Positions 35,985 to 54,223 are shown, numbered from the stretch's first letter. The stretch is DNA of 64,000 nt from an uncultured archaeon (GCA_964342815.1 CAYFHS010000013.1:1-64000); one strand, 5' to 3'. The notes: a model not told the origin generated them from the letters alone. A program made the numbers and translations.

Positions 35985-37283
35985 ATGCTTCTCGTAAAGG
36001 AGACTGTAGGACATATAATAATGGAAATGAACCATTGGTGGATACGGGGGTCGGTATCGAGTGATTTTACCGGGATTCCAAGAAAAATGTATTCCAGTCA
36101 GTTACAGGAATCATTGAACATACAAGAAATTATCATACTTACGGGGATGCGCCGAACAGGCAAGACAACAATGATGTACCAGCTAATCCAACATCTCATT
36201 CAAATGAATGTAGATCCATTTAGGATTTTATATGTCCAATTCGACCACCCTTTACTGAAAAACCTGGATATATCCGATCTAATAAGGCAGCACAGAGTAG
36301 ATCACGGCATATCGAAAAAGGAGATCCTCTATGTATTTTTCGATGAGATTCATTACCTGGAGGATTGGGCTCAATGGGTAAAGGTTATCTATGATCAAAA
36401 ACAGGTGAAGATGTTCATAAGCGGTTCTTCAAAGGCCTTGCTGCTCCCAAAGGCCATGACCCATCTGTCCGGCAGATATCTCACCTACAATATATGGCCT
36501 CTTTTCTTTCCGGAATTCCTGGATTTTCGCAAATCGGAGCCTGAACCGGGGGATGAACACAGATACGTTTCCCTGGCGGAAGAATATCTCTCGACCGGAG
36601 GCTTTCCCCGCATCGTATTGGAGAAGAACGTGGAATTCCGGGGCCGACTAATGAGAGAATACTTCGACGGCATCGTATTCAAGGATATTGCAGCGGTTCA
36701 TGAGATAAGGGACATACGAACTCTCAGGGATCTGGCAGCATTCCTGGTTACGTCCTCGGGAAAACCCGTAAGTTTCAATAAACTGAAGAAGTCTTTCAAA
36801 TTATCCATCGATACCATAAGAGAATATATCTCGTATATAGAAGAATCTCATTTGATTGAAGAATTACCTGTGGCTTCCAGATCCAAGAACGAACGGGTGT
36901 ATAATCCGAAAAAATACTATGTGCTCGATCCCGGTATGCGGACGGCCCTGACCGGGGAAAAAGAAACCGGTCCGAGAGCGGAAACGGCACTGCATCTTCA
37001 TCTGAAACAATTGAAATTACCTCTCGGATACTGGAAACAGGTCCACGAGGTGGATTTTATCATTCAGGGAAAACCACTTATTGCGGTAGAGTGTAAATAC
37101 AAAAACGAGATAACAAAAAAGGATCTGAAATCTCTCGAAAAATGGCTGGCGAAGGAGAAAAAAGGAAAGGGCATCATCGTCACACGCGATCTGGAAGAGA
37201 CCATCGAGTTGGGCAAAAACACAGTGAGAGCATTACCCTTGTGGAAAGTTCTTCTTGATCCAAAGATACTATTACTCGACTAA
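35985..37283 (+). CDS. AAA+ ATPase, AAA_14/DUF4143 family (paralogue of 822-2135)
   Basis: MNHWW, GMRRTGKT, FFDEIH, GGFP, C-terminal EVDF. Confidence 0.88.
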   Translation: MLLVKETVGHIIMEMNHWWIRGSVSSDFTGIPRKMYSSQLQESLNIQEIIILTGMRRTGKTTMMYQLIQHLIQMNVDPFRILYVQFDHPLLKNLDISDLIRQHRVDHGISKKEILYVFFDEIHYLEDWAQWVKVIYDQKQVKMFISGSSKALLLPKAMTHLSGRYLTYNIWPLFFPEFLDFRKSEPEPGDEHRYVSLAEEYLSTGGFPRIVLEKNVEFRGRLMREYFDGIVFKDIAAVHEIRDIRTLRDLAAFLVTSSGKPVSFNKLKKSFKLSIDTIREYISYIEESHLIEELPVASRSKNERVYNPKKYYVLDPGMRTALTGEKETGPRAETALHLHLKQLKLPLGYWKQVHEVDFIIQGKPLIAVECKYKNEITKKDLKSLEKWLAKEKKGKGIIVTRDLEETIELGKNTVRALPLWKVLLDPKILLLD

Positions 37284-37328: not shown

Positions 37329-40300
37329 ATGTTCTTTTACTCGGAGTTGTTTCCAATGTCCCCTCCAAGAGCTATGGTGATAAGTCTTTTTCTTATTTTC
37401 ACATTCGTTTGTGGGATATTACCTCCCATGGGCGGGGAGCCTACCCCCCCGCAGAGTGATGGGGGGCGCTCCAGAGGGACTATAGTCGTAAATGCGTCAG
37501 GGGGCGGGGATTACACGCATATACAATGGGCGATTGATAATGCCAGTGACGGGGATACAATTAAGATCCACCCTGGCATCTATTATGAGAATCTTGTTAT
37601 AGATGTCAGTATCCAACTTGTCGGAACTTCAAAATTAAATACGATCATAGATGGTCAAGAACAAGATACATGCATTTTAGTACTGAATGATAGTGTAACA
37701 ATTATGAATGTTAACGTAATTAATAGCGGTAAAAATCGGGAGGATTCAGGCATAATGGTCTCAAAAAATGGGAAATGTATAGTTCGAAATTGTACAATAA
37801 ATAATCACCTTAGGGGAATTTGGTTGGGAGGTTGGAGGGGGGTTCACTTTCCCAAAATTAATAATACGATTGAAAATAATATCATTTCAAACAATAGTTT
37901 TGGCATTCTCTCTGAATACTCCGACTACAATCAAATAAATAACAATTCATGTTTCAATAATGGGATTGGAATATCATTGAATGATTCGAATAGGAATATT
38001 GTTGTAAATAATTCATGCTATCAAAATCGTTGGTATGGGATTTCGGCATTGGCGTCGAGTAATAATAATATTGTCAGAAATTTAGTTTATCAAAATAATA
38101 ACACTGGAATCAGTTCGTACTGGTCAAATAGTAATAGTCTCATTAACAATACTTTATCAAACAATGGTAATGGAATCCGTCTTGGTGGGACGAAGTTTCA
38201 CACTTTATACAATAATAAACTTGAAAATAATGGTATTACTCTCTCAGATAATGATGATCTAAATGAATTGCTTACACATACGATGGATGTTTCAAATTTG
38301 ATAAATGGGAAACCACTTTATTATTGGAAAAATGTAACTGGGGGATCGATTCCCAGCGGAGCAGGCCAAATAATCCTTGTAAACTGTTCGGAAGTGCTTG
38401 TAGAAAATCAAGAAATAAAAAACAGTTCGATAGGTATTTTCCTTGGTTACTCTTCAAGAAATACTATTTCACGTAACAAATGTTCCGATAATTCAAATGG
38501 AATTGAAAATTGTGGAATTCAACTTTGGTATTCAGATTATAACGTTGTTACAGAGAATACATTCAATTCGAATGCAGGTGATTATGCGGGGCATGGGATT
38601 CAATTGTTTTTTTCAAATAAAAACGACATCTCTAAAAACATATGTAATGAAAATGACATCAACGGTATCTCAATTCAATACTCAAATTACAACAACGTGA
38701 CAAACAACACTTGTAACAAAAATGGTTTTGAAGGCATTTATCTTTATAGTTCCATTATTAACACAATCTCTAACAGTACTTTTTTTTCAAATGAGCTATA
38801 TGCCATTTCGATAAATTATTTGTCAGAAGAGAATACAATTTTTTTAAATTCATTTATCGATAATAACAATGGTGGCGATCAAGCCTATGACAATGGTATC
38901 GGTAACAAATGGAACAGCTCGGATAAAGGAAATTATTGGTCTGATTGGAATAAACCGGATACGGATTCCGATGGCATTATTGATACCCCCTATATAATTG
39001 ATAGTAATTTAAACTCGAAAGATTATTACCCGCTTGTAGCACCACCACGGAATATCACGCCTATTGCAGACGCAGGGCATAGTGTAATAATAAACCAGCA
39101 TGAGGATGTGAGATTTAATAGTTCAAATACTATACACAGAAGACTGGTTATCAATTATACGTGGAGTTTTATTTATGACAATATCAATCAATCTCTCTAC
39201 GGACCATCACCATCGTTCACGTTTCACACCGCCGGGACATATGAAGTTCTACTTACGGTAATTGGCTGTTTTAGGCAAAACTCAAATGACACAGTTATCG
39301 TTAAGGTGTTGGACATTACATATCCCATAGCCAACGCTGGAAACGATACCATTATCGAAGTGTTCGGATCAATGCTTTTCAACGCCTCGAACAGTTCGGA
39401 TAATGTAGGGATTAGCGTATACCAGTGGAGATTCAGTTATGACAATGAAGAAAGGATTCTCTTTGGTGAAACAGTCTCCTTCGGTTTCGATAAATGCGGA
39501 GTTTATGTAGTAACACTGAATGTCAGAGATGAAGAGGGGAATTCAGCTTCAGATATCATAAACATAACAGTTATAGACGCAACAGCTCCCATTGCTGATG
39601 CTGGAGAAAATATTTCTATTCGCACAGGTGAAACAATTATTTTTGATGGAACCGATAGTACAGACAATGTAGGGATAATAAATTACACCTGGTCCTTTTA
39701 TTACAATCGAACGGATCAAAACCTTTATGGTTCTAAATCACAATTCAAATTTGAGATAGCTGGAAATTTTTCAGTTACTTTGCATGTAAGAGACGCAATA
39801 GGTCTGTGGGACGTTGATTCCATAGGGATAAATGTGATTGATAACGAGAAACCTAATGCAGATGCCGGAGAAGATGTTAACATAAATTCCAATGGTTCAG
39901 TCCATTTCCAGGGTAATGGAAGCTGGGACAATGAAGGTATTAAAAATTTCACCTGGACCTTTGAATACAATAATAGTATAATCACGTTATACGGCTCAAC
40001 TCCAAATTTCAGATTCGAGATACCTGGGAAATACAATGTAACATTAAGAGTAACAGATATTGAAGGGAATATGGGAACCGATTCATTAATTGTAATCGTC
40101 CACCCAGATAAGGTTATTCCTTCTGATGATGATGATGACGTTAGTCCGACAGATGATGATATTGATCCTACTAATGATGATGTTGATCCGAACGACGGTT
40201 CTGATGCCAGAGAGTCGGGTTCCGGAATTCCCGTATGGGTCTGGATACTCCTGTTCTTTTTTATAGTCGCTATCATTACTGTATTAGTCTTTCTTATCAG

Positions 40301-40388
40301 GAACCCGAATGTGATAGAGAATGAAAAATCTTCAGAAGATTATTTGGGAAGGGTTGAGAAATCCGAAGAATCGGAAATAGAAAAATGA
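37329..40388 (+). CDS. NosD/CASH beta-helix + ~4 PKD surface protein with TM anchor (paralogue of 8915-12889)
   Basis: GGGDYTHIQWAIDNA, GNYWSD, ADAGE/PKD repeats, DDDDVSPTDDDIDP linker, C-terminal TM. Confidence 0.85.
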   Translation: MFFYSELFPMSPPRAMVISLFLIFTFVCGILPPMGGEPTPPQSDGGRSRGTIVVNASGGGDYTHIQWAIDNASDGDTIKIHPGIYYENLVIDVSIQLVGTSKLNTIIDGQEQDTCILVLNDSVTIMNVNVINSGKNREDSGIMVSKNGKCIVRNCTINNHLRGIWLGGWRGVHFPKINNTIENNIISNNSFGILSEYSDYNQINNNSCFNNGIGISLNDSNRNIVVNNSCYQNRWYGISALASSNNNIVRNLVYQNNNTGISSYWSNSNSLINNTLSNNGNGIRLGGTKFHTLYNNKLENNGITLSDNDDLNELLTHTMDVSNLINGKPLYYWKNVTGGSIPSGAGQIILVNCSEVLVENQEIKNSSIGIFLGYSSRNTISRNKCSDNSNGIENCGIQLWYSDYNVVTENTFNSNAGDYAGHGIQLFFSNKNDISKNICNENDINGISIQYSNYNNVTNNTCNKNGFEGIYLYSSIINTISNSTFFSNELYAISINYLSEENTIFLNSFIDNNNGGDQAYDNGIGNKWNSSDKGNYWSDWNKPDTDSDGIIDTPYIIDSNLNSKDYYPLVAPPRNITPIADAGHSVIINQHEDVRFNSSNTIHRRLVINYTWSFIYDNINQSLYGPSPSFTFHTAGTYEVLLTVIGCFRQNSNDTVIVKVLDITYPIANAGNDTIIEVFGSMLFNASNSSDNVGISVYQWRFSYDNEERILFGETVSFGFDKCGVYVVTLNVRDEEGNSASDIINITVIDATAPIADAGENISIRTGETIIFDGTDSTDNVGIINYTWSFYYNRTDQNLYGSKSQFKFEIAGNFSVTLHVRDAIGLWDVDSIGINVIDNEKPNADAGEDVNINSNGSVHFQGNGSWDNEGIKNFTWTFEYNNSIITLYGSTPNFRFEIPGKYNVTLRVTDIEGNMGTDSLIVIVHPDKVIPSDDDDDVSPTDDDIDPTNDDVDPNDGSDARESGSGIPVWVWILLFFFIVAIITVLVFLIRNPNVIENEKSSEDYLGRVEKSEESEIEK

Positions 40389-40564: not shown

Positions 40565-43500
40565 TCATTCCCATTCCACCTTCTCCAACCCCTCCACCAG
40601 TGCATTGTATATCCTCTCTCTTGCTTTTCCCGTAGATACCACCTCATGGGCCGTACCCACTATCTTCATTCGCTCCGCCGTGTTGTGTTTCCTGAATATT
40701 CGAATCCATTTCTTGACGTATTTGGGATACAATTCCTTTTCCCGTTCATCCAGCTTCTCATCTATATCCCTTACACGGTCCAGCTGGCCGGGATAGCGCT
40801 TCCTCTCATCATAGAGCTTGGCGAGAGCCGGGTCGTTTTTCCTCATATCCTTTCTTATCTCCCTCTCCACCAATGGTACCGATTCCATTCCCGACGGTTC
40901 CAGCACCGAGCCAGTGGCGTGCTCGTCCACGAGAAACTTTATATGATCGGGATTTATCTGGCTGTCCACCACCACCCACGCGCCGCCCCTGATCTCTGCG
41001 TAAGGCGGCATGTACAGTACAACTGGAAGATCATATTTCGACAGCTCGTCAACTATCATGGCTCCGTATTTCAGCACTTCCTCGAACAATTCCAGTTTGC
41101 CTCCCGCAAAACCCCGCCAGTTCGGCATTATGACAAGGGGCCGCCTCTCCCGCCTCATGAATTCGATCCACTGGGCCGTCTTGAAGGCCGAGTCGGGGTA
41201 CCAGACCTGCCCGAACTCCATTTTGTCCTTTGTTGCGGTGTCTGGGTCCGCCGGGTCGGCGGGAACGTGCTTGATCGAGGTTCCCGTTTCCACCGCTATG
41301 AAACCTATGGGCAGACCGCCCATGGTTGCCCGTCCCACGCGGACACCTCCGCCCCATTCAGCCATTTCTTCCTCTGCGCTGCCGCTGTCGAAGAGTATCT
41401 CCGCCAGCCTGAGGCCGTCATAGGATTTTGGCCGCTCCGCATCGGGGGCAGGTGGGCTGATAAGGCCGTTTGGCCCGATGAGAGCCTCCCCGATATCCCT
41501 TTCGATGGTATCATCGCAGCGGATCGACGGAGTTTTCTTTCCAACTACAGGCGGCAAACCCCGGATCCACCTCAGAAGGAGCCTGCATGCATCTCGCTCA
41601 TCCTCAGCTATGCGGTGACTGACACCGTTGGGACCCATAATCTCGGGACCTCCCAGTTCCCGGTTAGACGAAAATATCTTCTCACCGCCGTAAAGAGCAT
41701 TTAGAGCCCTGTAGCCGGTGAGGATTATTTCCGATTGCCTCGTCTGTATGACTCGCTTTAAAAGCCGAACGTTATAGGATATGATACCAGTACAGGTGTC
41801 GGTTATGATAGCCATGGTTGGCACGGAGTGGAATGCCATGGATGAAGCACGGGCCGTTCTTGCCGAGCCCGAAAGGTTCTCCTGGTTCAATTCAGGGGAG
41901 CTTTTTATTATCGAGCTTATTACCCACCGCCGCTGTTCAGTGCCGTTGATGATAACCTTTCTTTCATGGGCCTCGACATTATCGCCGTGTATACGGTAAT
42001 CCGGCTCAGTAAGATACAAATATTCTCCGTCAATATCCGCACGTATCCCCGGGACTCCTCCGATGATACTCGTGACAACATAACTTTCCTCGCCCCCTGT
42101 CTTTCCGCCAATCCGCGGGCGGGCCATTACCAGTGGTTTTAATAGCTTGTAATCAGAAGCGCTAAGGTACAGTTCATCGGATTCGTCATCATAGTTCAGG
42201 CTGTGGCTGACGAGACGATCCAACCCTATTCTAGCCCCGCTGCCCTCTGCAAAATAGACAAATGGAATTCCCTCGGCGGTGGCCAGCTCCGACGCAGCAG
42301 CGTAGGTCATATCTTCACGTATGGCCACGGAACCGCCACGAATGGTCATGTCTCCCGAAACTATTACAATATTCCGTCCTTTCGGAGCTTCAGGTGTTTT
42401 TATGTGGACCTTCCATACTACTATGGAAAGAATACTTCTCTCAGGAGCCCGCTCGATGGGGACGAGATGACACGAACGGTCAAGTATCAGTTCATTTGCA
42501 CTGAAGATATTGTCCGGTTTTGCCATACCGGATTCACCCCATATCTTTTCCAGCTCACCCTCTATGAGGGCAGGCCGGTCATACACGTAGACCTTCCCTC
42601 TGCTTCGGCGCGCCTGCCTCTTTCGATCCAGACGGTCCAGGTCGCGGTATAGCTCGTCAAGTTTCTGCCAAGCTTCTTCCGGAGGTGAGTAGTCAGCATC
42701 TTTCAGGCTGTGCTCAAATTCCTCATTGGGTATGATCGCTCTGGTAGGCTCGGACTCCCCGGGAAATGTGTGTTCCATGATAACATAAGGTTTGAATTGC
42801 AGCATCTGACCTGTGGGATTGTCCACAACTATCAAAATCTCCACGGATTTTTCCGGGCGATACGATGAATAAGCCCAGCCGTGTATCTCAGTACGGGTCA
42901 GGTCCACGTCTGCATAATCTCTTAGATGGTGCTGCATCTTCACAAGGATTCTCCGCGTCTCTGTCCAGGACAATCGTATGGGCCTCACGAACCTGAGGTA
43001 TATCTGATTATTATGTGTCTTAGCCCCCGTAGCCGCATAGGATATGCGGAGATGGCGGAGCGAAGCCCGGAACGCCTCCTTGGCTGCAGGGAACGTGGGT
43101 CCATCCTCCCCCATGACAATGCGGGAATTGCGGATCATGGTCCTAACGTAAATTCGATTCTCTATTTCCGGATAATCCCGACCCCTTGGATTTTGTTTCA
43201 AGTAATGATAAAGGTGTACGTTCATATCGCTGGACGGTAGTTTAGCCATGTAATTCGCAAATGGTTCAAGCTGCCTTATGTTTAGAACATGACCCAGTGA
43301 CGGGTGAAGGTCCCTATAAAGCCGGTCTTCAACATATTCCCCATCCTTGCCAAGGGGTCGGAATGTATAAAGACCGGGATAGTTCTCGTTGCTGTCCCGC
43401 ACCACAAAGGTTATCCTTCGTAGCATTGCGTGCCCCAGAGAGTTATTTATCGTATCTCTGAGAATGGCGGATAACTGGTCGCTGTCGGCAGCATCCGATG

Positions 43501-46500
43501 GTCTCGAGATAAGCAACTCTATTACGTCGTCGAGATGTGGTGAGTCCGGTTCGCTTAACCACATGCTTTCCAGTTTTGAGTATAATCGGAGTAATAGCTC
43601 TTCCATGGTTTCCCCAGGCAGTACCAAGCTCACCAATCCAATCCTGAAATGATTCGACCTCTCATCCCGGAACCTCCAAATATACGTCCTTTTACCTTCT
43701 GGCGATTTCTCATAAACGCAGCTAAGGTCCGGGTGCCGCCTGTAAGCTCTGAGAATTATTAGCTTTCCTGCCAACCTCCTCAATCCGGTCCTGCCGGTGA
43801 GCAGGTATCCGATTAGCCGTCCCATAAATGATTCGGAGGCCTCCATGAGAGCGCCGATGATCCGCTCCTTAGCTTCCTTATCCCCCGACTCTTCCGCTTC
43901 GAGGATCTGCTCCATCATTTCATCAAGGTCCTGAGAGGTTCCCGATTTAAGGGAAAGAAGATAAAGAAGTTCTTCCGCCTTTGCCACTATCTCTCGATAC
44001 TGGTCGTTGTAACCCAAGGATACAACTGCTTTAAGATCGTCGGCAATGCTCCGATAATCCATCACCGACAAACCGTCGAGGAGGCGAGAGAGGACATAAC
44101 GCTTCAAATCGAGCTGGGCGTGGGAGCGAGCTAACGTGTGAAAATCCACTGGATCATTGATAATATCGATGGCCTCGAGCGCAGCGGCAACATTCACACC
44201 GCCGCTGAAATGCCTCTCGTCCCGATAGAAACGTTCGCTCAGTGTAGAAAGAAATGAAATCCATTCACTCTCGTTAACAACCTCTCTGAGTCGGAGCGAC
44301 TCTTCCAAGAGAAGCTCGACAATTGCCGCAGGATATGAATACCCGCTCAGGATGAACTCCAGCGGTTCACGAAGTGAATTAAGAGCTATAGGTGGAGAAA
44401 TGGAACGGAATTGAGCAAGGGTTACTTCCTTGTTTTCGCCTAACAGAGAATACCACAAATCCTCTATTCGTTTATCCGGTACTACCTTTGTTTCCTCCCT
44501 GCATATCTCATTATCCGTCTCCCCTTCGAAGCGGACAAGTATGGCACCGGCTTCCACACTGTCCCCTGTCTTAACAAGGATCTCTGAAACCATTCCTTCG
44601 AGTGGGGTTTCGAGAGATGTGATCATTTTCATCGCTTCGAGGCTCAGAAGAGTGTCGCCTTCCTCCACTCTAGATCCGGCTTCCACAAGAATTTCGGTAA
44701 CTGTCCCACTGAGCGGAGCTCTAAAAGTCGTTGGATCAAGGTCTGTGGTGAATGTTGTTGTACGTCCCCCTATCTCGATATGACTTTCTACCACCTCATC
44801 TGTGCGATATACTCTGAGAATCTCACCGCCGGCCTCGAAGAGATAACTTCCAAACGGGTCATTCTCCCAGAAACGCACAGATGCGGTCATACCGCACAAT
44901 GTAACGTTATACAGATCCACCCCCGCCTCGCGGACGTAGATCTCATAGATATTGCCTCTGTACCGGACTCTCGTAATGGAAGTATTGGCCATTAGCGTAG
45001 GTCGAATCGTCTGACCGGTTTTAATACAAGAAAGAAACTGCATCCTCAGGTCCGCTTTCCTCACGTTCAGGTCAATAAGTGCCATTGCCATAAGTGCAAG
45101 ATCAGGCCTTTCAGTAACACTACCCACGGCGGAATCTCTCTTCTTTATGATTTCCGGGACCCAGCCCGTATGTATATTTTTACCGTCAATGTATTCGGGA
45201 TCTCGCAACAGGTCCATGGCGAAACCCGTGGACGTAAGTATTCCCCTGTATCGGAGTCGATCCAGGAAGGAGATCATGTGCAGTCTTGCTTCCTCCCGGT
45301 TCTTTCCTTTGGATACCACATGGCCGATCTGACTGTCGGCAAAAGAATGAACCATTCCTCCCGGCCCATGACTGAAATAATAGCGAGGAGTATTGGGATC
45401 CGTGGGCGGTATTTCAATATCCTTCACAGTTCCTGACTGAGGGCTGAATCCCGCGTCGGGATTTTCCGCTAATAACCGGACCGATAGGCTGTGCCCGTAG
45501 GAGGTAAAATCCAAGCCGCGGTTCCTCAATTCGGGGGACAGCGGAATTCCCATGGCTACCTTCAACTGTTCGACCACCAGGTCAAGACCCGGAATGAGTG
45601 CTTCCGTTGCGATGTGTTCCACCTGCAGACGTGTATTCATTTCCATGAAATACGGATTTCCTCGGTCGTCCACCAGGAACTCCACCGTTCCAGCACCCTG
45701 GTATCCAACCGAAATAGCGGCGGACACGGATGCTTTACGAATACGTTGGCGGGTTTCTTCTGAAATGGGTATGCCGACCCCTGCTTCCTCGATCAGTTTC
45801 TGATTATGCCGCTGTATGGAGCATTCGCGTTCACCTAGTGCCACCACGTTCCCATGACAGTCCGCCAGTATCTGTTCCTCCACGTGGCGGATTCCTCCGA
45901 TTGCAGCTTTTTCCATAAAGACTACTTCGTTTCCGAAGGCTGCCCTGGATTCCGCACGAGCCGCGTTGAAGCCGCTTTCAAGCTCGCCCCTATTATTAAC
46001 GAAGCGGATACCACGCCCACCCCCGCCAGCGGTGGCTTTTATTGCCACGGGAAACCCGATCCTCCTTGAAATCTCTGCTGCTCTACCGAAGGTATGCACG
46101 CCGAAATTATCGTATGCAATCCGGTACAGGTCCCCCTTCATCTCGAGTATTTTTTCCCCGCCCCTTGTGAATAATAACTTTTCGATTTCATCAATCTTGT
46201 TTATATTATCCTGGATGACGTCGTAGCTCCCGCTCCACCTCAGCATGGGAACCCCTGCAGCCTGCATGATCAATTTTGACATGATCTTGTCGCCCATGGC
46301 TCTCATGGCGTTGACCGGCGGACCGATGAAAACGAGACCTCTATCATGAACTTTCTTGGCGAACTCAACATTCTCGGCAAGATGACCCCAACCAACGGCA
46401 ACTGAGTCGCATCGGTACTCTTGGGCGATTCGAAGCACCTTGTCCTGGTTCTGGTATGTATCCGTAGGACGGGTCCCGTCCAGTCGTGCGATCTCGATAC

Positions 46501-46828
46501 CGAATTGTTTCAGATACCCGGGTCGTCCCACTGCATCTTCGTTGCTATCACCGATCCAATCGGCATCGGAGGCCAGGGCTACGATCTGGATGAGATTTGA
46601 GTTTGTGCCCCCGGATATAATATAGGAAAGTGATTTTATACCCTGGATGAGACGCAGGGCGGACAAGCCGTTATTAACGATAAGAATTCGGCAGAAAGTT
46701 CTTTCCGGCATGCCGCTTTGTTCCTCAATAAAATTTCTAATAACAGAAATACTATTTTTTGTCTTATGAGAAAGTGTATTGGAAGATCCCGTCTTTCCTT
46801 TGATTTTTTTTTCCAGAACTGCGTTCAT
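40565..46828 (-). CDS. acc: Single-chain, eukaryote-type acetyl-CoA carboxylase (BC-BT-BCCP-central-CT)
   Basis: Uninterrupted ORF of ~2,090 aa. BC: ILIVNNG, GWGHLAEN, GPPVNAMRAMGDK, IKATAGGGGRGIR, EMNTRLQVEH, HSFADSQIGH. BCCP: EAMKM (Lys codon 44627-44629). CT: GSGARIG, GGPEIMGPNGVSH, GQVWYPDSAFKTAQ, NWRGFAGG, EIRGGAWVV. Start inferred at ATG 46828 (track: 46891). Confidence 0.93.
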   Translation of the reverse strand: MNAVLEKKIKGKTGSSNTLSHKTKNSISVIRNFIEEQSGMPERTFCRILIVNNGLSALRLIQGIKSLSYIISGGTNSNLIQIVALASDADWIGDSNEDAVGRPGYLKQFGIEIARLDGTRPTDTYQNQDKVLRIAQEYRCDSVAVGWGHLAENVEFAKKVHDRGLVFIGPPVNAMRAMGDKIMSKLIMQAAGVPMLRWSGSYDVIQDNINKIDEIEKLLFTRGGEKILEMKGDLYRIAYDNFGVHTFGRAAEISRRIGFPVAIKATAGGGGRGIRFVNNRGELESGFNAARAESRAAFGNEVVFMEKAAIGGIRHVEEQILADCHGNVVALGERECSIQRHNQKLIEEAGVGIPISEETRQRIRKASVSAAISVGYQGAGTVEFLVDDRGNPYFMEMNTRLQVEHIATEALIPGLDLVVEQLKVAMGIPLSPELRNRGLDFTSYGHSLSVRLLAENPDAGFSPQSGTVKDIEIPPTDPNTPRYYFSHGPGGMVHSFADSQIGHVVSKGKNREEARLHMISFLDRLRYRGILTSTGFAMDLLRDPEYIDGKNIHTGWVPEIIKKRDSAVGSVTERPDLALMAMALIDLNVRKADLRMQFLSCIKTGQTIRPTLMANTSITRVRYRGNIYEIYVREAGVDLYNVTLCGMTASVRFWENDPFGSYLFEAGGEILRVYRTDEVVESHIEIGGRTTTFTTDLDPTTFRAPLSGTVTEILVEAGSRVEEGDTLLSLEAMKMITSLETPLEGMVSEILVKTGDSVEAGAILVRFEGETDNEICREETKVVPDKRIEDLWYSLLGENKEVTLAQFRSISPPIALNSLREPLEFILSGYSYPAAIVELLLEESLRLREVVNESEWISFLSTLSERFYRDERHFSGGVNVAAALEAIDIINDPVDFHTLARSHAQLDLKRYVLSRLLDGLSVMDYRSIADDLKAVVSLGYNDQYREIVAKAEELLYLLSLKSGTSQDLDEMMEQILEAEESGDKEAKERIIGALMEASESFMGRLIGYLLTGRTGLRRLAGKLIILRAYRRHPDLSCVYEKSPEGKRTYIWRFRDERSNHFRIGLVSLVLPGETMEELLLRLYSKLESMWLSEPDSPHLDDVIELLISRPSDAADSDQLSAILRDTINNSLGHAMLRRITFVVRDSNENYPGLYTFRPLGKDGEYVEDRLYRDLHPSLGHVLNIRQLEPFANYMAKLPSSDMNVHLYHYLKQNPRGRDYPEIENRIYVRTMIRNSRIVMGEDGPTFPAAKEAFRASLRHLRISYAATGAKTHNNQIYLRFVRPIRLSWTETRRILVKMQHHLRDYADVDLTRTEIHGWAYSSYRPEKSVEILIVVDNPTGQMLQFKPYVIMEHTFPGESEPTRAIIPNEEFEHSLKDADYSPPEEAWQKLDELYRDLDRLDRKRQARRSRGKVYVYDRPALIEGELEKIWGESGMAKPDNIFSANELILDRSCHLVPIERAPERSILSIVVWKVHIKTPEAPKGRNIVIVSGDMTIRGGSVAIREDMTYAAASELATAEGIPFVYFAEGSGARIGLDRLVSHSLNYDDESDELYLSASDYKLLKPLVMARPRIGGKTGGEESYVVTSIIGGVPGIRADIDGEYLYLTEPDYRIHGDNVEAHERKVIINGTEQRRWVISSIIKSSPELNQENLSGSARTARASSMAFHSVPTMAIITDTCTGIISYNVRLLKRVIQTRQSEIILTGYRALNALYGGEKIFSSNRELGGPEIMGPNGVSHRIAEDERDACRLLLRWIRGLPPVVGKKTPSIRCDDTIERDIGEALIGPNGLISPPAPDAERPKSYDGLRLAEILFDSGSAEEEMAEWGGGVRVGRATMGGLPIGFIAVETGTSIKHVPADPADPDTATKDKMEFGQVWYPDSAFKTAQWIEFMRRERRPLVIMPNWRGFAGGKLELFEEVLKYGAMIVDELSKYDLPVVLYMPPYAEIRGGAWVVVDSQINPDHIKFLVDEHATGSVLEPSGMESVPLVEREIRKDMRKNDPALAKLYDERKRYPGQLDRVRDIDEKLDEREKELYPKYVKKWIRIFRKHNTAERMKIVGTAHEVVSTGKARERIYNALVEGLEKVEWE

Positions 46829-47016
46829 TTTATCACACGGATGCGGGATGACATCTCGGCATTTACTTGCCGTATTAAAGCTTTGCCTCACTATTAACCA
46901 AGCTGTTCAGTAAAATGAGTAATTTCAACCATTAAATGAAACCGATAAAAAAAGATAATAGGAAGGTCCGTATCACGTGGTACAGTAGTCGTTAACAATA
47001 ACTAGAAGGTGTACTG

Positions 47017-48249
47017 ATGGATCTGAATGATGTATTTCAAAGGATAGACGATTATTCGCAACAGATGTATGACACGTTGATGGACGTGTGCAAAATAAAG
47101 GCTCTGGCTCCCGAGAATGAGGGTGACGGAGAACTCGATAAAGCCGAATTCCTGATCAAAGTGCTCAAGGATTCCGGGATCGAAGACGCTAGGATAATTA
47201 AAGCACCGGACGCAAGGGTGACCTGTGGATTCAGACCAAACGTCATCGCAGTTCTCGAAGGCAGCAGGCCGGAGCTGGGTACCATATGGTCCGTTGCTCA
47301 TATCGATGTGGTGCCGCCGGGGGACCTGGGGCTCTGGAACACGGAGCCATATGAGCCGGTGGAAACAGACGAAAAGATAATCGGAAGAGGGGTGGAGGAC
47401 AACACCCAGTCATTGATCGCCTCGCTATTTGCCGCCCGTGCGGTCAGGGATTCCGGGATAGGTCATGAATACAATATCGGGCTCGCCTTTGTGGCAGACG
47501 AGGAAGTCGGCTCAAAGTACGGCATCAAATATCTGGTGGAGAACACCGAGCTATTCGACCGGGAGAAGGACCTCATCGTGGTCCCCGATTCGGGAAATCC
47601 GGAAAGCGATTTCGTGGAGGTTTCCGAGAAGAGCATCATGTGGTTAAAGGTCACCACCACGGGAAAACAATGTCACGCATCAAGCCCCGAGCGGGGCAAT
47701 AACGCTTACCGTGCCGCAATGAAATTCTTGCTGAAGGCTGACGAGTATCTACACGAAAGATACGGACTTTCCGATCCGCTATTCGATCCTCCGATCTCCA
47801 CCTTCGAGCCAACGAAGAAGCTGGCTAACGTCGGAAACGTGAACACAATACCCGGTGAGGATGTTTCCTATTTCGATATGAGGATCCTTCCCGATTACGA
47901 TCCCGATGCGATCCTTGCGGACATGGAGGAGATCGCCCGTGAGATTGAACAGGAGACCGGAGTAACGATAAATTTCGAAAAGGAGAATTACGACCGGGCG
48001 GCACCGCCGACGCCTCCGGATGCCCCGGTGGTGAAAAAGCTCATGAAGGCGATAAAGAGGGTATATGACAATCAGCCGAAACCGGGGGGGATCGGCGGAG
48101 GCACTTGCGCAGCCATCTTCAGAAGGGCGGGGTACAATGCCGTGGTCTGGAGCACCATTGACGAACAGGCTCACGCGCCCAACGAGTACATCTACAAGAA
48201 GAATCTTATCAATGACAGTAAGGTATTCGCTACGCTTTTTACCGAATGA
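47017..48249 (+). CDS. M20 family metallopeptidase/deacylase (ArgE/DapE-like)
   Basis: AHIDVVPPG, GRGVEDN, ADEEVGS, QAHAPNE metal-ligand motifs. Confidence 0.92.
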   Translation: MDLNDVFQRIDDYSQQMYDTLMDVCKIKALAPENEGDGELDKAEFLIKVLKDSGIEDARIIKAPDARVTCGFRPNVIAVLEGSRPELGTIWSVAHIDVVPPGDLGLWNTEPYEPVETDEKIIGRGVEDNTQSLIASLFAARAVRDSGIGHEYNIGLAFVADEEVGSKYGIKYLVENTELFDREKDLIVVPDSGNPESDFVEVSEKSIMWLKVTTTGKQCHASSPERGNNAYRAAMKFLLKADEYLHERYGLSDPLFDPPISTFEPTKKLANVGNVNTIPGEDVSYFDMRILPDYDPDAILADMEEIAREIEQETGVTINFEKENYDRAAPPTPPDAPVVKKLMKAIKRVYDNQPKPGGIGGGTCAAIFRRAGYNAVVWSTIDEQAHAPNEYIYKKNLINDSKVFATLFTE

Positions 48250-48338: not shown

Positions 48339-48809
48339 TCAAAGGAAGACGTTTTTCTTGATCTCCGACCTTGTTATGGTGCCGTCTTCACCGATAGCTA
48401 TGATATATGACCAATCATCTTTTCTTTTAAAAAAACGTGAAGAATCGGTTAGGTTATCCGTCTTCGAAAATCGGACATCTCCGCTGGGATGAAAATGTAT
48501 GACCACCTGTATAATATTGGGTTTCAAATATTTTCTATAACTTATGGGAGCGTCACAACTATTAAACGTACCAACATCCCCAATTTCGTAATCGATCAGT
48601 TGATTGGTACCTCTATCGATAAAAGCTATAGCACATGCCTCTCTCCATTGATTCATCCTGCAGAATTCAATTAATTTTTTTTCCACCTTAAAAAGGCTTC
48701 TCAATTTCTCCGAGTTGAAAAAATCCTTAATCGATTTTCTAACTCCTACCGGATTTAATACGGGGTCCCTGTTCTCTATTTGGTTTAGTATTTTATACAA
48801 TACCTTCAC
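48339..48809 (-). CDS. Stand-alone JAB/MPN+ (JAMM) domain protein
   Basis: HFHPSGDVRFSKTD matches HxH-x7-S-x2-D; upstream Glu in WREACAIAF. Confidence 0.7.
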   Translation of the reverse strand: MKVLYKILNQIENRDPVLNPVGVRKSIKDFFNSEKLRSLFKVEKKLIEFCRMNQWREACAIAFIDRGTNQLIDYEIGDVGTFNSCDAPISYRKYLKPNIIQVVIHFHPSGDVRFSKTDNLTDSSRFFKRKDDWSYIIAIGEDGTITRSEIKKNVFL

Positions 48810-49035
48810 CTGCTGTGAATTCCAATTTTATCAAATGGTGGACTGTGGCCATTATGCGATTTACTTCGATGTTAATTCATTTACTACTATAAAATTGTAT
48901 GGGTTTTGAGTTAAAAAGAGAAGGTGCACAAACAGGTCCGATGCTGTAACAAGGATTTACGCTCGGGGTAAATGATTCATTGATCGTAGATATCCGAACA
49001 AGTTCTTAAGGATTCATCAGGTGTGGATTTGATAG

Positions 49036-49695
49036 TTATTCTAGATCACCCCCATAACCGCAAAATGGACAAACCAAATCTGCCAAACCAAGATCACTAT
49101 CCTCTTTTTCAAAATCCTTATTACAATTTGGGCAGGTAAGTTCAAATTTCTCATCTTCTACTACTTCAAATTCAATGGGTTCTACTTCGGTTGACATCAT
49201 TTGCTCATTAATTGCAGATTCTTTTTCTTTTAAAAATGCATTTTTCACCCGATCACTTGACAGATATAACATAATAATACCGTTAATCGCCAAGGCGATA
49301 ATACTTGAAAAACAATCACTCGTGAAAGGTATTTCATCGGATCTATTTTGAAAGGCTCCAACCAGTACGCTAGTGAATAAATTATATATTATTCCAATTA
49401 TTGAAAGAATTAATAGGCTTATTGTCGCAATTCTCGCCCATTCCTTTCCTTTCCATAAATAAATTGCAGAAATAAATCCAAATACCAACAAAAGAAAGCT
49501 TATGAACAAAAACGCGGCAATTGATAAAGTTAGATCAATTGATGGTACATAATCAGATAGCGATAAGACAAAGTTGATGAAAATAAATATAAATGCTAAA
49601 TAAAGGAGAGATAGCGAATACATGATGCACAATAATACAGATACTACTTTTACACCAGTTGGGAAAGTTCGTCTCATGTCATCTCCATACATCAT
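49036..49695 (-). CDS. Membrane protein (4 TM) with C-terminal zinc ribbon
   Basis: Four hydrophobic helices; CPNC...CPFC. Confidence 0.7.
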   Translation of the reverse strand: MMYGDDMRRTFPTGVKVVSVLLCIMYSLSLLYLAFIFIFINFVLSLSDYVPSIDLTLSIAAFLFISFLLLVFGFISAIYLWKGKEWARIATISLLILSIIGIIYNLFTSVLVGAFQNRSDEIPFTSDCFSSIIALAINGIIMLYLSSDRVKNAFLKEKESAINEQMMSTEVEPIEFEVVEDEKFELTCPNCNKDFEKEDSDLGLADLVCPFCGYGGDLE

Positions 49696-49794
49696 TCCTT
49701 ATCTTATATATTATTTCCATTCTGTGACACAAAAATAATCACGTGTCAGGTGTGAAACTAATGTTTTCAATACCCATCTTGCAATTGGAAATTA

Positions 49795-50460
49795 TTATTT
49801 AGAATTAACAAAAGACAATATCTTTCGAGCAACGGTTGGGCTAATGCCCTCAATTTTAATTAACGATTCAGTGTCCATTTCCTTAAAGTCAGTTATATGA
49901 TGATAACCAGCGTCCTTTAAGGTTTTGATGAGTTCTTTTCTAATGTCCAGTTCATCGATAATATCATCAATTGACATTGTATTAGAATCTTCGATTTCTT
50001 CTGTTGGATCAATGTTTTTATTTTCCAGCGTTTCGGTTTGTTTATCAGGAAATTCCATTTTACATATAGGGCAGTATAGTTCTTTTTCATACAGTGCTTC
50101 ACCACACTCCGGGCATTCCACTAAGAGTTTCTTTACCTCTTCACCCGTTATCTTTTCCTCTGTTTCTATTTTGGATTTTTCCTTAACATGGACGTAATAT
50201 ATTATAGCACCAAAAATCAATAGAAAGAATATCAAAAAGCACCAGTTTCTACTCAATCCACGTCTTTTCGCATCTTTGTACACTACTGCAACAAACCAAA
50301 GACTAACAATATAGTAGATAATGATGGTAATCTTAAATAGAGTTTTTGGCCTCAAAAAAAAACTGTCAAATATTTGTAGTAATATGCCACCAAATACTAG
50401 TACTATCATATAAACGATACTACAAACGGAATAAATTTCTAATTTTTTTGAAAATCCCAT
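49795..50460 (-). CDS. Membrane protein with zinc ribbon and C-terminal helix-hairpin-helix
   Basis: Three TM helices; CPEC...CPIC; LIKIEGISPTVARKI HhH motif. Confidence 0.7.
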   Translation of the reverse strand: MGFSKKLEIYSVCSIVYMIVLVFGGILLQIFDSFFLRPKTLFKITIIIYYIVSLWFVAVVYKDAKRRGLSRNWCFLIFFLLIFGAIIYYVHVKEKSKIETEEKITGEEVKKLLVECPECGEALYEKELYCPICKMEFPDKQTETLENKNIDPTEEIEDSNTMSIDDIIDELDIRKELIKTLKDAGYHHITDFKEMDTESLIKIEGISPTVARKILSFVNSK

Positions 50461-50770
50461 GATTACACACTTTTGAATAATGTCAATTTATTATTTAAGG
50501 ATTGGTTTTATTAACCACTTATGTGAAGGCACTGGGCTAGTGATCTGGAGCATAGACGGTTCTTAGAGGTCGCTTTTCAAGTCAGGAATACCTGGACGGA
50601 CTTGATAAGTTAGAGTAGCACGCGGGGGTACTCGTTATCTGATGCCTCTGGAGTCCACCCCATGCCAAACACGCTGTAGAGGGATTATCCTATATTGTAA
50701 ACATACCTTTTATATATGTGAAACATTATTTTTGAAAAAAGCAAGTTTATAAATGAGACGGAGTGATAGG

Positions 50771-52066
50771 ATGAAAAAAGGAATGAAGATAGGAATAGGG
50801 CTGATCCTAGGAGTCATGCTAATAAGTATAGTAATACCGTTGAATGCAAGAGCTGGATCTGTATCTAATATTAAGGTCTATAGTGAAGTGTCTGGTAATA
50901 GATTTTCTGTAAATGCAAAATGGGATGAAGATGGTTATATTGACGTCGAGGGTAAATTATACCACAACAGTATTATTATAATAGAATCGGAAGCTAATTA
51001 TTACATTGGAGACACGAATTATCTCACTTTATATGATAATACTTTAGAATCGGGAACCTATAGGTTTCAGCTATGGTCTAACACCGATGATAAGGAACTA
51101 TTTGCAAAATCGTGGGATGTTCCAAAACTTGCCATTCGCCAAACTATTACTAACCAAAATGGTGATGTAGTAGAAGGAGGAAGTTCAGTAACAATGGATG
51201 GACAGATTGGGAGTATGTTCATATCCACCACAGAATTGTCTATAGAAAGTGGTGGGCCAGACTCATACAGGGTTGATGGCGTTTTAACATTGAATTTTAA
51301 TGATGTTTCTATAGAGCAAAACATCAATAACTGGATTAGTAATCGAGGTTATTATGAATATTATGGGATCGATGATTATACAATTGAACCGGTATTCGCC
51401 TCTACAATATTCGGTCTTCCGGGAGGAAGTTACGCTATTCAATCGGAATATTCAAATCAGTACATCCAGTTAACTTCGGGCTCAATAAATGTTTATGTAA
51501 ACGACCAATATCAACCTATAATTGATGATTTAGAAGACGATGTCGACTCTCTTGAAAAGGACTTATCAGATACGAATAAGGAATTGAATACAACTAATGA
51601 GGAACTAGTAAAAGCAAAATCAGATGTCGCAAGTCTTTTAAGTAAGATTAATTCTCTATGGAATGAAATATCTAATTTAAAAAATTCGGACAATTCAACA
51701 GGTGAAAAGATTGATGATAATCAAAATGTGGTTTCTCAAGATATTAAAAGCGTTAAAGAAGATTCAGAAGGATACACAGGCAATGTCATGTATATGGCGA
51801 TAGGTGGCATAGTGTTGGCATTGATCGGAATAATTGTGGGATTTATTGCCATTTCAAAAGCGAAAAAGGGAAAGAAACCTCCTGTATCTGACCAACATTT
51901 CTCCGCTGAACCCAAAACACATTCTTACCCTGAACCAAGCCATGAACCTCAACAACAGCATACTCACTCACCACCTTCACCACATCAACGACCTGAGCAA
52001 AAGCATTCACCCCTTTCTGATTCAGGCAGACCTCCACCAAGACCCCCTATGATGAAACCAATGTAA
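50771..52066 (+). CDS. Secreted/membrane-anchored protein with coiled-coil stalk and Pro/His-rich tail
   Basis: Signal peptide ending ARA; heptad segment DDLEDDVDSLEKDLSDTNKEL; TM MAIGGIVLALIGIIVGFIAI; start at ATG 50771 inferred. Confidence 0.7.
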   Translation: MKKGMKIGIGLILGVMLISIVIPLNARAGSVSNIKVYSEVSGNRFSVNAKWDEDGYIDVEGKLYHNSIIIIESEANYYIGDTNYLTLYDNTLESGTYRFQLWSNTDDKELFAKSWDVPKLAIRQTITNQNGDVVEGGSSVTMDGQIGSMFISTTELSIESGGPDSYRVDGVLTLNFNDVSIEQNINNWISNRGYYEYYGIDDYTIEPVFASTIFGLPGGSYAIQSEYSNQYIQLTSGSINVYVNDQYQPIIDDLEDDVDSLEKDLSDTNKELNTTNEELVKAKSDVASLLSKINSLWNEISNLKNSDNSTGEKIDDNQNVVSQDIKSVKEDSEGYTGNVMYMAIGGIVLALIGIIVGFIAISKAKKGKKPPVSDQHFSAEPKTHSYPEPSHEPQQQHTHSPPSPHQRPEQKHSPLSDSGRPPPRPPMMKPM

Positions 52067-52101
52067 AGATAACTTTTTTCAGAAACGCGCTATAGGACAC
52101 C

Positions 52102-52143
52102 GAACAGAAAGCATTACCAGAGCATCAATTCACGCCGTGAGAA
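52102..52143 (+). repeat. 42-bp direct repeat, copy 1 (orphan gene 3' end)
   Basis: GAACAGAAAGCATTACCAGAGCATCAATTCACGCCGTGAGAA; one mismatch to 54185-54226. Confidence 0.9.
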
Positions 52144-52288
52144 TCATTTCACCCGATAATATCCCGATCTCCTTTAACTTCTGTCCTGCAGTCCTCCAAT
52201 TCTTAACGATAGTGTTAAATATCCTTTGAATCTATCAGCACAACCACAAAGATTTTACATCTATGGAATGGAATATGAGGGATGGAAT

Positions 52289-52894
52289 ATGAAAACGAAA
52301 TGGAAGGTTGTAATTTGCATTTCTGCAATAATTGCTCATGTTGTAACTGCCTATGTTGTATATCCGTTTATTGAATACGAGACAGTAGATGATTTTTTCG
52401 GATGGGATCGGAGTGATAATGAGCCGAAAATTGAGTATGTAGATAGAATAGAATATATCAACAATACGGAATATGTAGATACAATTCATTATGTGGACAA
52501 GATTGAATATGTCGATAGGGTTGTCTATATTGATCAACCGAGAACAAATATCAATTCTGTAAAGGTGACAATTAAGAAGGCAGATTGTAATCATGATACC
52601 GATGAGGGAGACACTGGAACTTCCCGTTATCCCGATTTGTTTGTAGGAGTTACCGTGTATGATATTACTGAATACACGACAACAATGAACAATGACCGAG
52701 ATCCATATTTTGGTTGGTTCAAAACTTTCATTGCACATGAGATAACTGACATTTATATCGAATTATACGATGAGGATGCTAATGACAATGAGTTAATCGG
52801 TAACTTTGTAGCCGATCCGGGGAATGTAACAGATAGGATGTATCGTGGTGATGGGTGGAGTGTAACTTATTCGGTTAGTTACAAATACGAATAG
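52289..52894 (+). CDS. Membrane-anchored protein with (V/I)D-x-(I/T)-(E/H)-Y repeats and a C2-like domain
   Basis: N-terminal TM; repeats VDRIEY/INNTEY/VDTIHY/VDKIEY/VDRVVY; PDLFVGVTV, NNDRDPYF, IELYDEDANDNELIG resemble C2 strands and loops. Confidence 0.6.
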   Translation: MKTKWKVVICISAIIAHVVTAYVVYPFIEYETVDDFFGWDRSDNEPKIEYVDRIEYINNTEYVDTIHYVDKIEYVDRVVYIDQPRTNINSVKVTIKKADCNHDTDEGDTGTSRYPDLFVGVTVYDITEYTTTMNNDRDPYFGWFKTFIAHEITDIYIELYDEDANDNELIGNFVADPGNVTDRMYRGDGWSVTYSVSYKYE

Positions 52895-52912
52895 GGATAG
52901 AGAATAAGAGGT

Positions 52913-54223
52913 ATGGACATGAAAAAGATAGTCTCGATAGGAATCGTTGTGTTATTGTGCTTAGTGATCTTGAACACCATGGGTAACGCCCGAGGGGATA
53001 ACCTCGCCGGTGATCTGGACCAACTACTCGAGAATGAAAAGATGTTGAATATGAAGGATGGGGATTTCAATGAATCAACATACACCTATGGTATGAACAA
53101 TACTTATGTATGGGGGATTTGGCATGATGGGAATAATCTATTTGATGGAACCCATCAAAGTGCTGAGATGACGAGCCTTAATTATTTGCCTTTCTTTTTC
53201 CCTCATAGCCTAAAGATAACCCGGATTAGAGTTTATCCGATGGATGAAAACGGAGTAAAGGAAATAGAAAATATTTACATTCATCAATATCTTGAAATGA
53301 TGATTTCTGGCTCATATATTTTTTGGGATTTCCCTATATCAGAGTCAAACACCATAGGAGTGGTCTACAAAACGGACTATGTCGAATTTACTTTTCCAAA
53401 TTTTATAAGCTCCAGTCTAGCTATTAAATGTTCCGGTGTGATGTATTCACATATCAACGAAATAGAAATCTATTATGACAAGTACTATAACCCGTATCAT
53501 TACACCTCAGAGATCAACAACAATTATACCAACATCACCAACGAATACAACAATGATACCTATCTCAGTTACCAGAACGATACATACATCAATAACACCT
53601 ATCTTAACAGCACCTATCAGAACGATACATACATCAACCAGACCAATGCAACAACCAGAGTGATCCATGAGAACAACACCAATCTCAATAATACATATCT
53701 CAATGAAACCATCCTTTCAGACAACCAACGACTAGAGCAGAAGTTAAACGAGGTATGGGAACAGCTGAACGATACCAAAGGAGGCGGCGAAGCGGTTAAG
53801 GAATCCAAATCACTTGCAGATAGTACCTATTCCGACCCTATCCTTATCATTCTCCTACTGGTCATTATCGTACTCCAGATAATAATATTCCTGAGAAGGA
53901 AGAAAGGACAAGGGGAAATGATGACGGGTAATAATGCTATAGAACCGGAGGTAGAGCATACACCTAAACCGGGATTCAGCAGAGAAACAGAGGTAGACAT
54001 CATATCAAGGAAGGTTCAACAAGAGAAGCTAACCGAACATCAACCACCACCTACTCAACAAACCCAATATCAACATAGACAACCGAAACCGCAATCATCC
54101 GCACCTATCCCACCAGGGCAATCTATGACACCTCAACACATGGTAACAAACCCACAGGTTCAGACACCACCCCCACAACCACAAGAACAGAAAGCCTTAC
54201 CAGAGCATCAATTCACGCCGTGA
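52913..54223 (+). CDS. Secreted/membrane-anchored protein with sequon-dense Asn/Thr/Tyr repeat stalk and Gln/Pro tail
   Basis: Signal peptide; YQNDTYINNTYLNSTYQNDTYINQT; TM PILIILLLVIIVLQIIIFL. Confidence 0.72.
   Translation: MDMKKIVSIGIVVLLCLVILNTMGNARGDNLAGDLDQLLENEKMLNMKDGDFNESTYTYGMNNTYVWGIWHDGNNLFDGTHQSAEMTSLNYLPFFFPHSLKITRIRVYPMDENGVKEIENIYIHQYLEMMISGSYIFWDFPISESNTIGVVYKTDYVEFTFPNFISSSLAIKCSGVMYSHINEIEIYYDKYYNPYHYTSEINNNYTNITNEYNNDTYLSYQNDTYINNTYLNSTYQNDTYINQTNATTRVIHENNTNLNNTYLNETILSDNQRLEQKLNEVWEQLNDTKGGGEAVKESKSLADSTYSDPILIILLLVIIVLQIIIFLRRKKGQGEMMTGNNAIEPEVEHTPKPGFSRETEVDIISRKVQQEKLTEHQPPPTQQTQYQHRQPKPQSSAPIPPGQSMTPQHMVTNPQVQTPPPQPQEQKALPEHQFTP

Follow-up and report, generated by a model that had tools for sequence, protein, structure and literature searches.

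Homomeric acetyl-CoA carboxylase (ACC) is usually taught to be a eukaryotic enzyme, whereas the acyl-CoA carboxylases that have been characterised from Archaea (AccC/AccB/PccB type, Sulfolobales) are multi-subunit and serve the 3-hydroxypropionate/4-hydroxybutyrate cycle. In the eukaryotic enzymes, among them yeast Acc1 (5CSL/5CSK) and human ACC1 (6G2D/8XKZ), one chain carries a biotin carboxylase (BC) domain, a domain for the interaction of BC with the carboxyltransferase (BT), the biotin carboxyl carrier protein (BCCP) domain, a central domain (CD) and the carboxyltransferase (CT), in this order. The catalytic roles of the residues in the BC and CT motifs have been established from E. coli biotin carboxylase and yeast CT. 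A single-chain enzyme has also been described from Bacteria. SACE_4237 of Saccharopolyspora erythraea is a ~200-kDa actinobacterial homodimeric ACC that makes malonyl-CoA, and it is homologous to eukaryotic ACC from end to end, central region included (Livieri et al. 2019, PMC6491548).

Here we analysed a stretch of 64,000 nucleotides from an uncultured archaeon (GCA_964342815.1 CAYFHS010000013.1:1-64000; hereafter the window), on which a single-chain ACC is encoded on the minus strand. The window is part of contig C13 (116.7 kb) in a 4.35-Mb metagenome-assembled genome (MAG), G000, which is 88.9% complete with 3.2% contamination. We consider it probable, judging from the sequence comparisons below, that the gene codes for a functional biotin-dependent homomeric ACC of the central-domain-bearing family, native to marine Ca. 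Penumbrarchaeia, that its malonyl-CoA most likely goes to a PfaA-type megasynthase, and that it belongs to a single deeply branching clade within a family that is mostly bacterial. Among 401 searched Thermoplasmatota genomes ACC_central was found in 15, all from two families of one class, namely f1 (4/4 genomes) and f7 (11/24).

In the ORF listing of the window the gene appears as a single uninterrupted frame (40565..46891, minus strand) of 2108 aa counted from a GTG. The ATG at 46828 is residue 22 of this frame and appears to be the likelier start, since the homologue P0003 (86% identical) begins with the same MNAV and the TATA-like CTTTAATA lies 44 nt upstream. No introns were found in the gene, and its flanks are prokaryote-like. 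An initial annotation, made from the DNA alone, had described one intron-less ORF with the complete eukaryote-type order BC-BT-BCCP-CD-CT, and the single frame together with the Pfam matches bore this out (Table 1). Pfam ACC_central (PF08326), which the same annotation had suggested searching for, matched in two stretches with 108.5 bits, its cut-off being 23.2. The Pfam match to the BT domain was weaker, and PF21385 (BT) is precomputed on close homologues of the window ACC. The BC catalytic motifs, the biotinylatable lysine of EAMKM and the CT motifs NWRGF and (E/L)RGGAWVV are intact; ERECSIQRHNQK and VRLLAENP are further BC motifs readable in the protein. Those cited by the initial annotation, that is EAMKM, GPPVNAMRAMGDK, VHSFADSQIGH, KRQARRSRGKVYVYD, GQVWYPDSAFKTAQ and VLKYGAMIVD, and in the central domain LRAYRR, RIYVRTMIR and NQIYLRF, were all located where it had placed them.

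Table 1. Features of the ACC locus. Coordinates are window positions; residue numbers of Pfam domains count from the GTG, not from the ATG.
Feature	Coordinates	Strand	Residues	Basis or remark
Homomeric ACC coding sequence	40565..46828	-	2,087 aa from ATG	Single open frame and Pfam
Candidate TATA-box-like CTTTAATA	46873..46880	-		Within the GTG extension; sequence reading only
BC domain	45158..46693	-	67-578	Pfam, the three domains below
Biotin_carb_N			67-196	Pfam
CPSase_L_D2			265-452	Pfam
Biotin_carb_C			471-578	Pfam
BC glycine loop GGGGRGIR	46004-46027	-		Motif search
BC motif FMEMNTRLQVEH	45614-45649	-		Motif search
BT domain	44750..45100	-	598-714	Pfam ACCA_BT, 24.3 bits, below the 27-bit cut-off
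BCCP domain	44531..44728	-	722-787	Pfam Biotin_lipoyl, 59.4 bits
Biotinyl-lysine motif EAMKM	44624-44638	-		In BCCP
CD, non-catalytic	42407..44509	-	~795-1495	N-terminal helical part, then alpha/beta sub-domains
CT domain	40613..42391	-	1501-2093	Pfam Carboxyl_trans, 267 bits
Tandem duplication in CT N-lobe insertion	41900..42178	-		DELYL..SYVVTSIIG (42044-42178), then EYLYL..RRWVISSIIKS (41900-42028)
CT active-site strand TDTCTGIISYNVRLLKR	41753..41803	-		Alignment
CT motif NWRGFAGG	41099-41122	-		Motif search
CT motif EIRGGAWVV	40970-40996	-		Motif search
M20 metallo-hydrolase	47017..48249	+		Divergently transcribed; adjacency kept in the window's own family

When compared with the 93%-identical orthologue of another MAG (L010), the gene had a dN/dS of 0.09 overall, and of 0.07 in BC, 0.05 in BT-BCCP, 0.08 in CD and 0.10 in CT. 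Every domain is under purifying selection, and the value for CD indicates that this holds for the non-catalytic part as well. None of the NCBIfam models reached its own cut-off on the window ACC and none names such a protein; the public record of one orthologue carries the name 'carboxyl transferase domain-containing protein' only. In one relative (G035:C13:31797-35439) the ACC is broken into frames of 1,033 and 332 aa, possibly a frameshift, a pseudogene or an assembly error.

Outside its own clade the best sequence matches of the protein were eukaryotic ACC1/2 (~789 bits). In a HMMER comparison with solved structures human ACC1 scored 753 bits and yeast ACC (5csk) 701.9 bits, each over several stretches including BC-BCCP and CT. 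The domain order is that of the yeast and human enzymes and the length is similar, and the CT reaches 300-360 BLAST bits with eukaryotic CTs. Where columns are (nearly) invariant across 27 eukaryote rows, the window protein agrees with them in 69% of the BC and 76% of the CT columns. Identity to the eukaryotic enzymes is nevertheless only ~31-36%. For the CD an AlphaFold model of residues 795-1495 was built from an alignment of 13 archaeal sequences (pLDDT 72) and searched with Foldseek. Ranks 1-31 were all yeast, human or Chaetomium ACC chains and the rest was noise; the best E value was 2.8e-28, and the top CD matches had ~740-770 aligned columns, so that the fold match covers the full length. 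By sequence and modelled fold the window CD is homologous to that of eukaryotic ACC.

The archaeal enzyme is set apart from the eukaryotic one by its host, by its position outside the eukaryote clade (see below), by the sequence EAMKM around the biotinyl-lysine and by two features of the CT. In an alignment comprising nine sequences from Thermoplasmatota, ten from Bacteria and five from eukaryotes, an element of the form YLYL...(W/Y)V(I/V)xSIIG is duplicated in 9/9 Thermoplasmatota and present as a single copy in the bacterial and eukaryotic rows. In the active-site strand the eukaryote-invariant R-x-V-G-I-G-A-Y is replaced by T-x-T-G-I-I-(S/A)-Y, again in 9/9 Thermoplasmatota.

Bacterial single-chain carboxylases had been said in the initial annotation to lack the central domain. 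This is contradicted by SACE_4237 (PMC6491548) and by a family of ~1,860-aa proteins. With a Kofleriaceae carboxylase of 1,804 aa as query, thousands of such bacterial proteins were retrieved, and among the matches listed most carry precomputed PF08326; the named bearers come from Acidobacteriota, Woeseiaceae, Solirubrobacteraceae and Myxococcota. We concluded that central-domain-bearing single-chain ACCs are widespread in Bacteria. The window ACC, too, is a single chain from a prokaryote and has a central region, but with 2,087 aa it is ~220 aa longer than the ~200-kDa bacterial form (~1,800-1,900 aa), and the bacterial CTs score only 63-97 bits to the archaeal CT, compared with 300-360 bits for eukaryotic CTs. 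When eight ~200-kDa bacterial ACCs were added to the tree described below, they formed a separate basal clade (support 100); SACE_4237, whose sequence is not in the tree, is placed in this clade by assumption. By size, clade and CT score the window ACC is outside the SACE_4237-type family.

A rarer bacterial form is closer. A profile of the archaeal CD yielded only 368 matches among 1.84 billion cluster representatives, and the best of these after the archaeal cluster were long proteins on prokaryote-like contigs. These long-form ACCs (P0123, P0130, P0128, P0124 and P0167, from Deltaproteobacteria, Pseudomonadota and unclassified MAGs) share the architecture with PF08326 and fall in the same upper part of the tree. 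P0124 comes from a Pseudomonadota MAG, where its neighbours are ACPS, thiolase and GPAT, and P0128 on a toxin-antitoxin-rich Deltaproteobacteria MAG contig. In P0123 and P0130 the order is ACC-ACPS followed by a giant ORF, with an overlapping BolA-glutaredoxin pair upstream of P0130 in addition. P0167 is directly followed by a fungal-type type I fatty acid synthase (FAS I). The bacterial genes thus occur in ACC-ACPS-(FAS I) cassettes, whereas the archaeal gene stands alone or adjoins a PfaA-like synthase. Cassettes of the kind ACC-ACPS-(fungal-type FAS I) were seen on the bacterial contigs L042, L044, L041 and L046.

With the archaeal multi-subunit carboxylases the window ACC has the chemistry and the host domain in common. 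Their subunits are separate and lack BT and central domain, whereas in the window ACC all parts are fused in one frame, and the multi-subunit CT is very distant, with an outgroup branch of 8.3 substitutions/site in the CT tree and 3.6 in the concatenated tree. The window genome also contains a conventional set of this type (C1:182825-185615), in which a 549-aa CT adjoins a 529-aa BC, so that the window's family has both carboxylase types. A third biotin carboxylase of 492 aa was found at C28:21662-21982.

The genome encodes a plausible consumer of malonyl-CoA. On contig C41 (L032:6693-16301, minus strand) lies a gene for a 3,202-aa megasynthase with the order ACP-KS-AT-(KS-like)-ACP x5-KR-DH, which passes the NCBIfam model TIGR02813 omega_3_PfaA (1211.7 bits, cut-off 1010.1) and whose AT domain is similar to malonyl transferases, although its FabD match (196 bits) stays below cut-off. 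A PfaA-like orthologue is present in 15/15 ACC-bearing genomes, and strong ketosynthase matches in frames of several thousand aa were found in all of f1, nearly all of f7 and a few other Thermoplasmatota families. We found no paper describing a Thermoplasmatota PfaA-like megasynthase. In the ACC bearer G017 (L064, G017:C17) the PfaA-like gene (819-10745) also codes for a C-terminal phosphopantetheinyl-transferase domain, and the ACC gene (10833-17261) begins 87 nt downstream of it on the same strand. Contig C33 of the window genome (L033:6434-10592) carries in addition a small type II-like FabZ-like/KS/FabG cluster with a phosphopantetheinyl transferase. It consists of ACPS (minus strand), a FabZ-like dehydratase, a 205-aa ORF, a KS of FabF type, a reductase of FabG type and a nitroreductase, and genes for a radical SAM protein and a second SDR are found close by. 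A BirA biotin ligase passes NCBIfam TIGR00121. Biotin ligase, ACP and ketosynthases were among the partners for which the initial annotation had advised a genome search, and its proposal of a malonyl-CoA source for the archaeon is plausible. Of other malonyl-CoA users, no type III polyketide synthase, fungal-type FAS helical domain or HpaB_N (4-hydroxybutyryl-CoA dehydratase type) was found in G000, 88.9% complete.

From the enzyme family the following mechanism can be proposed. BirA, encoded elsewhere in the genome, would biotinylate the lysine of EAMKM, and the BC domain would carboxylate the biotin with ATP and bicarbonate. The BCCP would then swing to the CT site, where CO2 would be transferred to acetyl-CoA, possibly also to propionyl-CoA, giving malonyl-CoA, while the CD would act as scaffold of the dimer. 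The malonyl-CoA would most likely be used by the PfaA-type iterative megasynthase (ACP-KS-AT-ACPn-KR-DH) and by the small FabZ/KS/FabG cluster.

Several observations speak against so simple an assignment. The adjacency of ACC and megasynthase was seen in a single genome, G017, of one genus, and elsewhere the two are on different contigs. The co-occurrence of ACC and PfaA-like genes is confounded by shared ancestry. Thirteen f7 genomes (G011, G015, G020-G022, G024, G026, G029, G031-G034 and G036, which make up the genera g11, g15 and g18 plus G024 and G031) have a PfaA-like gene and lack any Carboxyl_trans domain, to which MAG incompleteness may contribute; the megasynthase therefore does not strictly need the homomeric ACC. 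Finally, since the CT strand with the eukaryote-invariant R-x-VGIGAY is altered, the substrate preference may differ from that of the eukaryotic enzyme. An enzyme that mainly carboxylates propionyl-CoA or other short acyl-CoAs, or that is promiscuous like SACE_4237, would agree with this change on the substrate side of the CT, which runs across the archaeal clade. It would also suit family f7, where no carboxyltransferase besides the homomeric ACC was detected, so that this enzyme may have to serve all carboxylation needs. We regard such a substrate range as unlikely, though worth keeping in mind, because in the window genome the separate CT+BC pair on C1 could cover propionyl-CoA and the AT domain of the megasynthase is malonyl-transferase-like, albeit with a FabD score below cut-off.

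Trees were calculated for CT (75 rows), for BC (55 rows) and for concatenated BC+CT (47 rows, 1,052 columns), the last with IQ-TREE under LG+C20 PMSF with ultrafast bootstrap/SH-aLRT supports and the genome's own multi-subunit enzyme as root. The two single-domain phylogenies, which the initial annotation had recommended running separately, agree with the concatenated tree in branching order. In the concatenated tree the bacterial groups P0183/P0264 and P0167/P0238/P0248 branch off first from the root, followed by P0124/P0126 (100/99). The Thermoplasmatota clade (100/100) comes next at 94/87, as sister to P0128, P0123/P0130 and the eukaryotes; within this sister clade (100/100) P0128 branches first, then P0123+P0130 and then all eukaryotes (100/99). 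The window ACC does not branch within the eukaryotic sequences. The archaeal clade is nearer to the eukaryotes than the common ~200-kDa bacterial form is, yet it is not their closest relative: three sequences from prokaryote-like contigs, P0123, P0130 and P0128, stand closer, and of the eukaryote-invariant columns P0123 and P0130 keep 90-92% and the archaea 66-82% (BC/CT). In the tree no prokaryotic sequences stand closer to eukaryotic ACC than P0123 and P0130.

These trees suggest that the central-domain-bearing ACC evolved in prokaryotes and mostly in Bacteria, with the archaeal clade as a side branch that diverged deep in the tree. The simplest account would be that the gene was acquired once and anciently by the ancestor of f1 and f7, probably from a bacterium, and then lost in some f7 genera, while eukaryotic ACC would have come from the same prokaryotic pool and not from the archaeal clade. 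This reading is weakened by the dependence of the root on one long-branched outgroup and by the nature of most 'eukaryote' rows, which are cluster representatives; the named anchors are animals and Naegleria in the concatenated tree, with Cyanophora, Ancoracysta and Corallochytrium in addition in the single-domain trees. If the archaeal enzyme were the direct vertical ancestor of eukaryotic ACC, or its exclusive sister, passed on through the archaeal host of eukaryogenesis, it would share the architecture with its full CD and would be expected nearer to eukaryotes than the widespread ~200-kDa family, as is the case. This origin is very improbable all the same. Forcing an exclusive Thermoplasmatota+eukaryote clade made the tree 124.5 lnL units worse and was rejected by the approximately unbiased (AU) test (p 3e-65), although the tested group had been chosen after the tree was seen; P0123, P0130 and P0128 are closer to the eukaryotes, and the archaeal gene was found in two families of one Thermoplasmatota class only. 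The relevance to the origin of eukaryotic ACC that the initial annotation had raised thus survives weakly, as one rung of a mostly bacterial ladder, with some bacteria closer and the exclusive grouping of archaea and eukaryotes rejected.

Autotrophic CO2 fixation of the 3-hydroxypropionate/4-hydroxybutyrate type, as in Thermoproteota, would be the use to which the characterised archaeal acyl-CoA carboxylases are put, but as a destination of the malonyl-CoA it is highly improbable, as no HpaB_N domain was found in the genome, 88.9% complete. The host class, EX4484-6, has been named Ca. Penumbrarchaeia and is described as heterotrophic or mixotrophic (PMC12220078), which also argues against this use. 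The class of the host follows from the ACC bearer G017, which is MAG M17C-73-04 (contig JARVGK010000022.1); this MAG has been classified as EX4484-6 and came from an enrichment whose community was reported to consist of archaea only (PMC10477458). In public records the ACC bearers are named Thermoplasmatota, Thermoplasmatales or Thermoplasmata archaeon, or uncultured archaeon, and their sources are cold seeps, oxygen minimum zone water, sediments and enrichments. The deepest split of the ACC tree lies between two groups of Thermoplasmatota sequences.

The surroundings of the gene were compared between assemblies. The adjacency of ACC and M20 was found in three of them (the window's, L010 and L009), and an all-against-all ORF comparison of ten ACC loci revealed no neighbour kept across the clade, only M20 within the window's own family. 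Other ORFs that seemed to be shared were rejected as antisense shadows of ACC. Pieces identical to the contig, without differences, occur in seawater metagenomes of other studies. The initial annotation had proposed a check of both junctions: a contig piece from other studies bridges the ACC/M20 junction (46735-47075), whereas the 3' junction (40388/40565) is bridged by none of the listed pieces, which are short and of low depth and none of which covers the whole gene. A breakpoint at 45614-45653, suggested by a depth spike and loose ends, was rejected, as these derive from biotin carboxylases of other organisms, in which the motif EMNTRLQVEH is universal. The GC content of the ACC gene (0.509, the 99th percentile of a genome with 0.454) speaks for a foreign origin. 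Its tetranucleotide distance is ordinary (87th percentile), the M20 gene has a high GC of 0.526 too, and high GC by itself does not make the ACC foreign. The true compositional outliers are two low-GC islands (37329-40388 and 48339-55900; GC 0.36-0.37, below the 1st percentile of the genome). They flank the ACC-M20 pair, one with a NosD/PKD/beta-helix surface protein and the other with RadC-like, HhH and coiled-coil genes; the latter, at 48.3-55.9 kb, takes up ~7.7 kb where L010 has ~3 kb between the same two conserved genes.

Because of the 15 archaeal bearers, the archaea-only enrichment, the recurring ACC-M20 junction and the identical pieces in seawater metagenomes, we concluded that the ACC is native to a marine Thermoplasmatota lineage and that a chimeric or eukaryotic contig is excluded for practical purposes. 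Mis-binning of a eukaryotic contig, or a recent transfer of the gene from a eukaryote to the archaeon, would explain the high GC and the animal ACC1/2 as best named matches beyond the own clade, yet its probability is close to negligible given the orthologues in 15 related archaeal genomes from independent assemblies, the archaeal clade outside the eukaryotes (100/99), which are themselves nested with bacteria at 100/100, the intron-free gene with prokaryote-like flanks, and an ACC-M20 junction shared by three assemblies and also present on contigs from other studies. Of the claims of the initial annotation, that the gene belongs to an archaeal genome was confirmed by its two-family distribution and the archaea-only enrichment, whereas a transfer from eukaryotes does not fit, because the archaeal clade lies outside the eukaryotes and is inherited within two archaeal families.

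In a literature search, which was not exhaustive, no report of a homomeric ACC in Archaea was found, in line with the initial annotation, which knew of no such description; the main text of the paper on Ca. Penumbrarchaeia does not contain the words 'carboxylase', 'malonyl' or 'polyketide' (PMC12220078). What is new is apparently the first archaeal member of an already known kind of enzyme, with two lineage-specific CT features. The full eukaryote-type architecture, CD included, is stably kept in an archaeal lineage. Its pairing with a PfaA-like synthase bears on the 'lipid divide' and on whether fatty-acyl products are made by some archaea. The archaeal clade is a well-sampled prokaryotic branch immediately below the clade of eukaryotes and bacteria. 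Together with the rare bacterial ACC-ACPS-FAS I cassettes it is useful to root the origin of eukaryotic ACC, but it does not show that the eukaryotic enzyme came from Archaea. More tentatively, and with less than even chances in our estimate, ACC and PfaA-type megasynthase might together enable the lineage to make long fatty-acyl chains, possibly polyunsaturated ones, in a malonyl-CoA-dependent way, and the archaeal clade might be a surviving branch of the prokaryotic stem of the eukaryotic enzyme. If true, this would mean bacterial/eukaryote-style lipid chemistry within an archaeon.

Elsewhere in the window, three adjoining genes on the minus strand (3233-8500) code for a molybdopterin formate-dehydrogenase-like subunit with NuoG-type Fe-S domains, a NuoF-like and a NuoE-like protein; by sequence the trio looks like a soluble NAD-linked formate dehydrogenase or a hydrogenase-type module. 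Two paralogous ATPases with AAA_14 and DUF4143 domains are encoded at 822-2177 (minus strand) and 35985-37283 (plus strand), and a member of the same family adjoins the bacterial ACC P0128 (L043).

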